Source: a virus
Lineage: Duplodnaviria > Caudoviricetes
IMG/VR virus record: IMGVR_UViG_3300037067_012889
Location: 192,001 to 256,000 of that record
Length of the DNA stretch: 64,000 nucleotides
Reading direction: 5' to 3' (one strand)
The notes under the pieces were generated by a model. That model saw only the letters and a program-made list of their open reading frames with translations, was not told the origin of the DNA and did not search any database. Shown here piece after piece: positions 8,986 to 11,925 of the stretch (the stretch's first letter is position 1; every line of letters begins with the position of its first letter). A program made the translations under genes and the position numbers.

Positions 8986-9342
8986 CTATTTCGACTGGTC
9001 CTCTTCAATCAGGTTCTCACGGATTTTCACGGCTTCGGCAGTGATATTCCGCAGCAGCATGTCCGCAATCGGGTCCGTAGTCCTGGTACACGCCAGGTGG
9101 CTTGTAATTTCATCCATGAAAATTACCATCGTCATTGCTTCCGGGGTGACGAGACAGTTCCCACCAATTTCCAATTCAAAATTATCGAGATGTGCATGAC
9201 TTGCGGCGTCCAGGTGAACACCACCACGGCAACCATCTGATGCTTTGCCACGCTTATGCAGATAATAGTTACGCATTAGTAAATCTCCGGGCGTCAATAT
9301 AGTACAATTATCCCGCTTTTTTCTTGAACTTACGTGCGCCAA
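8986..9342 (-). CDS. hypothetical protein directly downstream of the Cas12f-like genes (true start probably MRNYYLH, ~9276)
   Basis: ORF fills the gap between the Cas-like gene and the tracr copy; GGAG precedes the internal ATG. Confidence 0.6.
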   Translation of the reverse strand: MAHVSSRKKRDNCTILTPGDLLMRNYYLHKRGKASDGCRGGVHLDAASHAHLDNFELEIGGNCLVTPEAMTMVIFMDEITSHLACTRTTDPIADMLLRNITAEAVKIRENLIEEDQSK

Positions 9343-10513
9343 TCACGTGGATTATGACGTCGATATCGGCTTTATTGCAAGCCTTCTGAATCAACGAACC
9401 CATCTGCTGCCAATCCCAATGAGTCGATTCAATATTGCATCCCTGGACACGACCGACCTTCTCCATATGTCGATTGTTACATAGATCGCCAACTGGTTGA
9501 AATACCACAAGCCGACCCGCACCAGCCATACTCAAACGCCTGACCATCTCTTCGGCGAGCCTGTGATTCCATGTTTTGACGAAATCACGCCATCGACGCG
9601 TCAACTTCTCACGACGAGTAATTGCGATGTTCCGCTTTTTCTTAGATCCTTTATAAAGACGTTGGATTGTCAAGGATCGGCGGGTGTGCTTGATGTCGTT
9701 ACCAAATCGCAATCTGGTGCTTGTCCTACCATTGATGCGGAACAGGATTGGGCGTGAAAATCCACCAGACAAGAAAGCCGTCTTGTTCTTGTCGATGGGC
9801 AATTTCACCTTTGGAATGGAATGACAGATCTTGGCATACCATTTACCATCGCGTTCGAATAAATCGACACCCTTGATACTCCATTCGCCGTCCGCAATCC
9901 TCCAAAACATGTTGCGAATAGAATGGAGCTTGTATGACTTAGTCTTGATCTTGAAGATCATGACGGTGTCATCGTCGAATCGCACTTGCAACTTCCAATC
10001 ATCATCGTCAGTTGCCGGAACGACGATATGACAATCGCTAGTGCAGAACGGGATTTTGCCGCGCTTAGCAGATTGCGGCAATTCGCCAAGACCAGCCAGA
10101 GCGATCATCCAGCGAGGATAGGCTGACTTGATGCCGGACTTCTTAATGAGATCCTTCATCGCTTTTTTGACAGCCAGCTGAATCTGCTTCATACCAAACT
10201 CAGCATGTGTCTCGGCGATAATGGCCCGCAGCCGTTCATCCATCTCAGGGCTGCAAGGATCAACAGAACATCGAATGCGGGGACTAACACGCTTATCAGG
10301 ATGATACAACCATTTCTTGTCGTTCTCCATCCATTCTCGAACGATAAGATGATTACCAGCTTCGTAGTGTAGCCGCAACCAAGCCGCTGCAAAATCATTA
10401 GTAACCTGCTGGATTTTGTCGGCGATGGTAGAGAGACGCTTTTTCTCTACTGCGAAATCTCCATCACTTCCAACTAGATCAACCCTCTTGTTCTTGATAA
10501 CTCTGTACTGCAC
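9308..10513 (-). CDS. nuclease-dead Cas12f/TnpB-like protein B
   Basis: WED strand DGKWYAKICH, RuvC-I position DKNKTAFLSGG (no Asp), WRDFVKTWNHRLAEEMV helix, RuvC-II LVVFQP (no Glu), WDWQQMGSLIQKAC..ADIDV; ends before any Zn finger or RuvC-III; GAGGAG RBS. Confidence 0.82.
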   Translation of the reverse strand: MQYRVIKNKRVDLVGSDGDFAVEKKRLSTIADKIQQVTNDFAAAWLRLHYEAGNHLIVREWMENDKKWLYHPDKRVSPRIRCSVDPCSPEMDERLRAIIAETHAEFGMKQIQLAVKKAMKDLIKKSGIKSAYPRWMIALAGLGELPQSAKRGKIPFCTSDCHIVVPATDDDDWKLQVRFDDDTVMIFKIKTKSYKLHSIRNMFWRIADGEWSIKGVDLFERDGKWYAKICHSIPKVKLPIDKNKTAFLSGGFSRPILFRINGRTSTRLRFGNDIKHTRRSLTIQRLYKGSKKKRNIAITRREKLTRRWRDFVKTWNHRLAEEMVRRLSMAGAGRLVVFQPVGDLCNNRHMEKVGRVQGCNIESTHWDWQQMGSLIQKACNKADIDVIIHVIGARKFKKKAG

Positions 10514-10532
10514 GATTTCTCCTCAAAGGAAA

Positions 10533-10609
10533 AGGTGACTCTGGCGAGGGCTAACACGGTACGTATTGCCCGCAGCTATTCTCGCCTTCGAGACGTACAG
10601 GACGCCTCT
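10533..10609 (-). ncRNA. putative tracrRNA copy 2
   Basis: Identical 77-nt element between the two Cas-like genes. Confidence 0.8.
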
Positions 10610-10620
10610 GGATTGATTCA

Positions 10621-11925
10621 TCATGCTGCTTTCTTCTTACGCAATTTGCTCTTGCGTGATTCACCAATCTTCCTAACAGTGACCTTGATGCCGACGACCT
10701 TGCAAGCGTGCTGCAATAACAACTGCATTTGGTACCAATCCCAACCGGTCGATTCGGTGAACCCCTTCATCTTCCCGATATTAGTCAGGTATCTTGATTC
10801 TCGCCATTTGCCAGCTGGCTGATATACTACAACGTGGCCGATTTTGGATTTGACACATCGCTTAACGACGTCTGCGGCCCAACAGCTATTGGTCGTCTTG
10901 ACCATATCACGCCACGTGTCCCTGATCTTGTCGCGCCACTGGATTGGCTTCCTGCCATGTCCTTTCCTGGCACTGGAAGCATATTTGTATGATTCGTTTT
11001 TACCGAATCGTTGTTGCGTCAGCGATTTGCGCACACGTTCGATATGCCTACTGTCCATCAAACCCGTCAAAGTCCTACCATTGATTCGCATCATCATCGA
11101 ATTATGGTAGCCAGCGGTAACGAAAGCCGTCTTCGTGGCGTCCAATTGTGACTTCTCGATATTCGTAATCTTGTAACAGATATGCGCGTACCAACGGCCA
11201 TCACGAAGAACTAACGAAGAAGTGTTGAAGATGAATTCACCAGATGCAATCTTCAATAGAGCTTCACGAATGGTGGCCAAATTACGGCCACCGGTTCGCA
11301 TTTTAAAGACCATTGGACGCAGACGAGTACCGAGTCCTCTTTCAAAGCGTACTTCCAGTTTCCACGGGTCTTTAATCGTTTTCGGAACGATGATGCTGCT
11401 GTTCGAAGTGTAAAACGGAATGGGTGCAGGTTTATGTGCTTGTGGGAATTCGCCCAAGCCGGAAAGAATCGTCATCCATCTCTTATAGGCCGACTTCGAC
11501 GACGGCATTGAAGAGATCGTCTTACCAACGTTTTGCAAAATGATGCCGATTGGTTTCGTTCCAAGATTAGCATGCTCTCTTGTGAGAAGTCTGTAGAGCT
11601 GCCTACTCATCGCTGGATCGCATGAATTAACAGGGCACTTAATGCGTGGCGGTGCATCCTTTTTACCCTTATAGGCTTTCGCCCACTCTTTATCCTTCTC
11701 GATCCAATTGCGAATCACCAGATGATGCCCGGCTTGCTGATGCAAACATAGCCAGTGGTTGCAGTAGTCGTTCGCCATCTGCTGCATTTGGACGGCCAGC
11801 GACAAGAGGCGTTTTTTCTCGTCTACGAAATCACCATCACTGCCAGTCAGTTCGATCCTGATGATTTTCGTGATACCATCAGGCTTCTTCTTACGTGGCT
11901 TCTTCTCTACTTTTTCTTCGCTCAT
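10621..11925 (-). CDS. nuclease-dead Cas12f-like protein A
   Basis: PIPF, DGRWYAHICY, LDATKTAFVTAG (RuvC-I Asp lost), RKGHGRK, VVVYQP (RuvC-II Glu to Gln), WDWYQMQLLLQHAC..VGIKV; truncated before the Zn finger and RuvC-III. Confidence 0.85.
   Translation of the reverse strand: MSEEKVEKKPRKKKPDGITKIIRIELTGSDGDFVDEKKRLLSLAVQMQQMANDYCNHWLCLHQQAGHHLVIRNWIEKDKEWAKAYKGKKDAPPRIKCPVNSCDPAMSRQLYRLLTREHANLGTKPIGIILQNVGKTISSMPSSKSAYKRWMTILSGLGEFPQAHKPAPIPFYTSNSSIIVPKTIKDPWKLEVRFERGLGTRLRPMVFKMRTGGRNLATIREALLKIASGEFIFNTSSLVLRDGRWYAHICYKITNIEKSQLDATKTAFVTAGYHNSMMMRINGRTLTGLMDSRHIERVRKSLTQQRFGKNESYKYASSARKGHGRKPIQWRDKIRDTWRDMVKTTNSCWAADVVKRCVKSKIGHVVVYQPAGKWRESRYLTNIGKMKGFTESTGWDWYQMQLLLQHACKVVGIKVTVRKIGESRKSKLRKKKAA

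Follow-up and report, generated by a model that had tools for sequence, protein, structure and literature searches.

Two adjacent genes in the stretch of phage DNA analysed here (64,000 nucleotides, hereafter the window) encode paralogous Cas12f proteins, A and B, that have both lost the RuvC catalytic residues and are strictly retained together under purifying selection. We consider it probable that A acts as subunit 1 and B as subunit 2 of an RNA-guided DNA binder that does not cut, that is, an A:B heterodimer. By definition, a class 2 effector is the product of one gene. To our knowledge, all Cas12f structures solved so far are homodimers in which the PAM pocket and active site of the second subunit are unused.

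The A/B Locus

The phage record is 363,885 bp long and contains terminase and portal genes; it is that of a jumbo phage. All features of the locus lie on the minus strand, as follows. Gene A (10621..11925) encodes a nuclease-dead Cas12f of 434 residues, the predicted primary subunit. Gene B (9308..10513), which has a GTG start and a strong RBS, encodes a nuclease-dead paralogue of 401 residues, the predicted secondary subunit. Three CRISPR arrays of one 36-nt repeat accompany the pair: array 1 (7323..7539) and array 2 (8620..8860), each with three repeats and a degenerate trailer, and array 3 (12186..12563), with six 36-nt repeats and one partial repeat. A degenerate single repeat, recognised by its sequence, lies at 11966..11994, before the start of A.

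Four near-identical elements of ~80 nt are found upstream of A (11999..12078, so that the degenerate repeat separates it from the gene), between A and B (10531..10610), upstream of array 2 (8894..8973), and upstream of array 3 (12596..12675). The copy upstream of A has two stems, a loop able to pair with the 3′ end of the repeat, a 3′ anti-repeat, and a U tail. These sequence features and covariation identify the element as a tracrRNA: among 19 copies, 99.5% of cells are paired, and 13 of the 20 pairs show two-sided change. The first loop is complementary to the last 5 nt of the repeat in 9 of 11 other loci and to 4 nt in the remaining 2, and the 3′ end pairs with the next 8–12 nt of the repeat in 10/11 loci, co-varying with it. 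An Rfam search gave no match, and no match to cas1, cas2, or Sigma70_r2 was found in the phage record. A and B use one repeat family, and the tracrRNA cores upstream of the two genes are identical; therefore, A and B would share one scaffold.

Further repeat-derived sequences were observed. An orphan half-repeat whose 3′ end is duplicated lies just before the start codon of the ORF at 5466-5810 (window 5819-5831, minus strand), and a distal mini-array lies ~62 kb from the locus (G000:C1:137404-137483); a distal array is present in the related phage L036 as well. An 8-nt duplication of the repeat 3′ end follows many repeats (L002 7310, 7902, 11341-11477; L001 7734, 11655), suggesting irregular spacer integration. 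Elsewhere in the window, array 1 is directly followed by a LemA-like gene and by genes with TPM domains, one of which has a prepilin-type N-terminus (5466-7263, minus strand). The segment 15517-21001 (minus strand) encodes a 1314-residue helicase-like protein and a 496-residue neighbour, both with many repeats of ~60 residues ending in an RPDWF-like motif.

Loss of the RuvC Active Site

A and B are 41% identical over 406 residues. Their reading frames are intact and diverged, and the shared motifs pointed out in the original prediction (GSDGDF..EKKRL, KSAY.RWM, and WDW.QM) are present in both. The best PDB match is AsCas12f1, both by sequence (E 7e-9; E 1e-38 with the family profile) and by fold (Foldseek E 1e-19, TM ~0.6), and the proteins have a compact WED/REC/RuvC fold nearest to that of Cas12f. 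The model of B by itself was poor (pLDDT 61), so its fold search was left out of the assignment of subunit roles.

The G.D.G of RuvC-I had been read as TAFVTAG in A and TAFLSGG in B, and the RuvC-II Glu as Gln in both (VYQP and VFQP). Alignment to AsCas12f1 bears this out: D225 of RuvC-I aligns with T270 of A and S249 of B, and Q369 of A and Q339 of B occupy the Glu column. Both proteins end 11–15 residues past the last RuvC strand, with neither CxxC nor RuvC-III, so that the D-E-D triad and the C-terminal Zn finger are absent in A and B. The strand itself had been described as GI.V in both; its initial Gly does not hold for B, which has Asp. Among B orthologues, four have Glu at RuvC-II and two have Ala, and thus the site is drifting in B as judged by the alignment.

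The family was defined by a profile (236 representatives at E < 1e-30), and RuvC columns were read from an alignment of 182 family proteins. The RuvC-I column has Asp in 0/182 and the RuvC-II column has Glu in 7/182; no conserved acidic substitute near RuvC-I is seen among the 182. Family loci are mostly single-gene and phage-borne. On this alignment, the dead RuvC is a family-wide trait and not a special property of the A/B pair. Since single-gene relatives are dead in the same way, inactivation is older than the duplication, as originally proposed; inactivation after duplication was rejected on the same ground. Dead, truncated, array-linked Cas12f proteins are already in print (PMC13472631 and PMC10691335). 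What is new is the A/B pair. From these sequences, DNA cutting by A or B is very unlikely.

Origin and Maintenance of the Pair

A and B occur together in all nine lineages with long contigs, down to 50% identity. In four of these (the window, L001/L012, L002/L014, and L013/L033), the two genes are adjacent in the DNA; the other five A/B cluster pairs are matched solely by contigs of equal length (41105, 68068, 15910, 167790, and 7932 bp). No B without A was found among the family members searched. Close relatives, for example L003, have a single gene beside the same tracrRNA and repeat end. In the tree, clade A (100/100) and clade B (100/100) are sisters (99/96) and stand beside the single-gene relatives, a topology by which A and B arose through one duplication. 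The stems of A and B are long, 0.45 and 0.67 (the longest), respectively, vs. 0.17.

Both genes are maintained, as had been suspected: dN/dS is ~0.07-0.09 for A and for B, where estimable, and co-retention is complete. Decay of B as a pseudogene was rejected, given its dN/dS of ~0.08. Overall conservation is equal (A 0.62, B 0.61); therefore, the changes in B are read as local loss rather than decay. In the P0006/P0028 lineage (68,068-bp contig), A and B are placed discordantly in the tree, a hint that partners were exchanged or that a rate shifted; the partners are thus not tightly co-evolved. P0145 also lacks the GHGR segment but is unrelated to B in the tree; no partner gene was seen on its 2.5-3-kb contigs.

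Proposed Division of Labour Between the Subunits

In solved Cas12f dimers, all PAM contacts are made by subunit 1 (PMC12255294). In SpCas12f1, the hairpin tip of subunit 1 enters the RNA core, and the tip of subunit 2 is unresolved and points away (PMC12255294). The PAM Tyr of AsCas12f1 is Y76 (10.1101/2023.07.03.547593), and in its WED hairpin S147, N151, and K154 contact the PAM duplex.

A retains four elements: the GHGR hairpin tip, the WED hairpin, the GTKPIG helix motif, and the PAM Tyr (Tyr111). Every A sequence has Tyr111, as do nine close relatives that do not belong to the pair clade; in B, the position is R, H, T, N, or D. It is in register with the PAM Tyr of OsCas12f and AsCas12f1, through a weak, gap-free OsCas12f match (E 6.2), and the register differs in another alignment. 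GTKPIG has a within-clade identity of 1.00 in A and 0.44 in B, where it is scrambled and partly deleted. The WED hairpin (193-204; A 0.59, B 0.14) and the RuvC hairpin tip (307-330, GHGR; A 0.84, B 0.13) are deleted in B. The tip is present in ~90% of the family, and its mapping is firm, corresponding to R280 of AsCas12f1; the absence from B of the GHGRK segment of A had been correctly noted. By alignment, the losses in B thus map to the primary-subunit contacts of solved Cas12f structures, in agreement with the original proposal that the paralogues specialised into two protomer roles. The alternative offered with it, different PAMs, fared less well: the PAM-helix positions of B are variable and partly deleted, with no new fixed motif, which argues against it.

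B also keeps a fixed set of new residues, including a basic N-terminal strand. In all, B lacks 35 ancestral residues that A has, and A lacks 16 that B has, several of them at 286-345 on the RuvC helices. The 16 residues could be subunit-2 contacts; no mapping of the residues lost in A onto published subunit-2 contacts was obtained. In homodimers, the tip of tracrRNA stem 2 meets the PAM residues of subunit 2. Conservation of this tip is 0.84 in single-gene loci (rest 0.71) and 0.67 in pair loci (rest 0.99). It is suggestive that, in these alignments, the tip is relaxed only in pair loci, in keeping with the subunit roles.

The dimer helix and loop are retained in both proteins. The predicted A:B complex passed the multimer-model check with a score of 0.76, the best of three controls scoring 0.29, against a mark that is reached by 58/80 solved complexes and by 2/110 mismatched pairs. 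Contact agreement between runs was at least 63% and partner pLDDT at least 81, and the interface, formed by helix 1 and the loop before the WED, matches that of solved dimers. The pass may reflect likeness to solved homodimers, and the score cannot separate A:B from A:A; the model thus shows compatibility only. A keeps the whole dimer surface, and an A:A dimer may still work.

Proposed Mechanism and Alternatives

We propose that a single-gene, nuclease-dead, homodimeric Cas12f was duplicated once in a clade of jumbo phages and that each copy then took over one role in the asymmetric dimer. A would read the PAM, hold the guide seed, and insert its RuvC helical hairpin into the tracrRNA:crRNA core. 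B would dock on A through its REC helix and support the PAM-distal duplex and, from outside, the RNA. One A:B pair with one tracrRNA:crRNA would bind matching DNA and leave it uncut. The likeliest effect would be a block of transcription or replication on the DNA of the host or of a competing element, possibly with the accessory proteins. A more ambitious version we put forward tentatively, at a little under an even chance: an obligate heterodimeric class 2 effector, with PAM-reading and PAM-blind scaffold subunits, a ~80-nt tracrRNA, and two dedicated accessory proteins, serving as a phage-encoded RNA-guided regulator.

If B were instead an optional partner or regulator, either an enhancer or a decoy titrating A or the RNA, the A homodimer would still be the working form, and A does have every subunit-1 feature as well as the dimer surface. 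The excess of ancestral residues lost by B (35 vs. 16) also speaks for this reading, which departs from ours only in not taking B as the usual second subunit. We regard it as unlikely, given that B accompanies A in every lineage with long contigs, down to 50% identity, and that the stem of A is itself long. Moreover, because PAM reading falls to subunit 1 alone (PMC12255294), the changes in B would make an A:B dimer productive and not poison it. A second alternative, in which each protein is an effector on its own and a different PAM for each broadens the range of targets, is improbable. In its favour, purifying selection acts on both full-length proteins, and a tracrRNA copy lies upstream of each gene; against it, the PAM positions of B are not fixed, B is without the hairpin tip that most of the family keep, the two tracrRNA cores are identical, and B is never alone.

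The fixed new residues of B, with the basic N-terminal strand, and its longest stem would suit a new, guide-independent job, for example linking the accessory proteins as an adaptor or diverting a host Cas12 as a decoy. This is highly improbable in view of the dimer interface and ancestral RuvC helices retained in B and of the accessory genes that accompany single-gene loci too. Least credible of all is a complex that cuts DNA via a rearranged or complemented active site. Rearranged RuvC sites are known in TnpB and Cas12 (PMC10691335), four B orthologues have the RuvC-II Glu, and a separate Cys-rich protein is always nearby; yet the RuvC-I Asp and any conserved substitute are missing throughout the family alignment, RuvC-III is absent, and the Glu of B is not conserved.

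Should the A:B heterodimer be correct, the natural pair would reveal which residues each subunit needs, be a clean case of a homodimer becoming a heterodimer by duplication, and help in designing Cas12f tools that are smaller or subunit-specific. With its short tracrRNA and two accessory genes, the larger phage family lends itself to direct tests.

Spacers, Hosts, and Accessory Genes

Members of the dead-Cas12f family also occur in two Planctomycetota genome bins, and therefore Planctomycetota is the likely host phylum. Spacers are ~30 nt long and differ between phages. No targets beyond chance were found in the phage's own genome, and none common to distinct phages; two spacers were absent from IMG/VR, plasmids gave chance-level matches only, and no target turned up in 401 sampled Planctomycetota genomes or in 401 sampled order-level genomes. 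A 23-nt match of an L033 spacer was rejected as a target, as it leaves the seed unmatched and is no more than chance would give. This variety from phage to phage, together with the lack of any target in these searches, makes it probable that spacers are taken up in trans and directed against DNA of hosts or competitors.

We lean slightly towards repression as the output; by analogy with Cas12m, a roadblock or repression role would be the most likely one. In the two Planctomycetota bins (L030 7339-7385 and 5545-5562; L031 2655-2701), the array is one half-repeat with a similar guide. The single guide of L030 matches 16/17 nt of intergenic DNA ~300 bp upstream of its own tracrRNA, a sequence match that fits regulatory binding. 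L030 has an ECF-sigma-like ORF immediately upstream, and near the L032 copy there is a sigma gene.

Two conserved accessory genes, beyond the account of the original prediction, follow the array. Accessory gene 1 (8376..8609, minus strand; ATG at 8609, with the ORF called from the GTG at 8630) encodes a Cys-rich, Zn-finger-like protein of ~77 residues, and it is overlapped by accessory gene 2 (7940..8473, minus strand), which encodes a helical protein of 177 residues with a C-terminal coiled coil. Sixteen distinct loci, comprising pairs and singles (L001-L005, L007, L008, L010, L020-L022, L025, L029, L030, L032, and L034) and amounting to nearly every locus with enough flank, have both genes after the array. 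Since this holds for pair and single loci alike, the output may need recruited partners. The accessory genes (window 7940-8609, minus strand) matched no known family. For the coiled-coil protein, neither Pfam nor PDB gave a real match; its Atlas look-alikes, including DUF3102 (score 0.78), are leads only.

Comparison with Known Systems

The A/B system resembles Cas12f1 of type V-F (AsCas12f1 7WJU/8J12; SpCas12f1 9I8Y; OsCas12f 9NZQ) in fold, in the REC dimer surface, in the GHGR hairpin, and in the use of crRNA and tracrRNA, with a tracrRNA loop pairing with the last 5 nt of the repeat. It differs in lacking the catalytic triad and the Zn finger, and the tracrRNA is ~80 nt here vs. ~160 in Cas12f1. 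Cas12f1 is a homodimer on one guide; the surface for such a dimer is kept in A and in B, and here two genes appear to supply the two subunits. A search of the literature found no report of a natural Cas12f heterodimer, the heterodimers there being laboratory mutant mixes.

The dCas12f-σE system (PMC13472631; 10.1101/2025.06.10.658880; PDB 9N9C) is likewise nuclease-dead, C-terminally truncated, and an asymmetric dimer. It is a homodimer from Bacteroidota with a fused single guide and a σE partner; in contrast, the A/B locus has a separate tracrRNA and arrays, and no match to Sigma70_r2 was found in three phage records (G000, G003, and G004). Comparable too are a cluster of CRISPR-associated dead Cas12f (Extended Data Fig. 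1a,b of PMC13472631) and the inactivated Cas12f/V-U43/V-U44 branches (PMC10691335), which are dead, RuvC-III-less Cas12f proteins beside arrays, with repression proposed. These are uncharacterised, and the excerpts compared mention no paralogue pair or accessory genes. Cas12m (V-M) and TldR are also natural, non-cutting, RNA-guided DNA binders that silence their targets, often on mobile elements, but they belong to other lineages, are single genes, and give only distant fold matches to A and B. By sequence comparison, then, A and B are dead Cas12f in kind, neither an active V-F nuclease nor a σE system.
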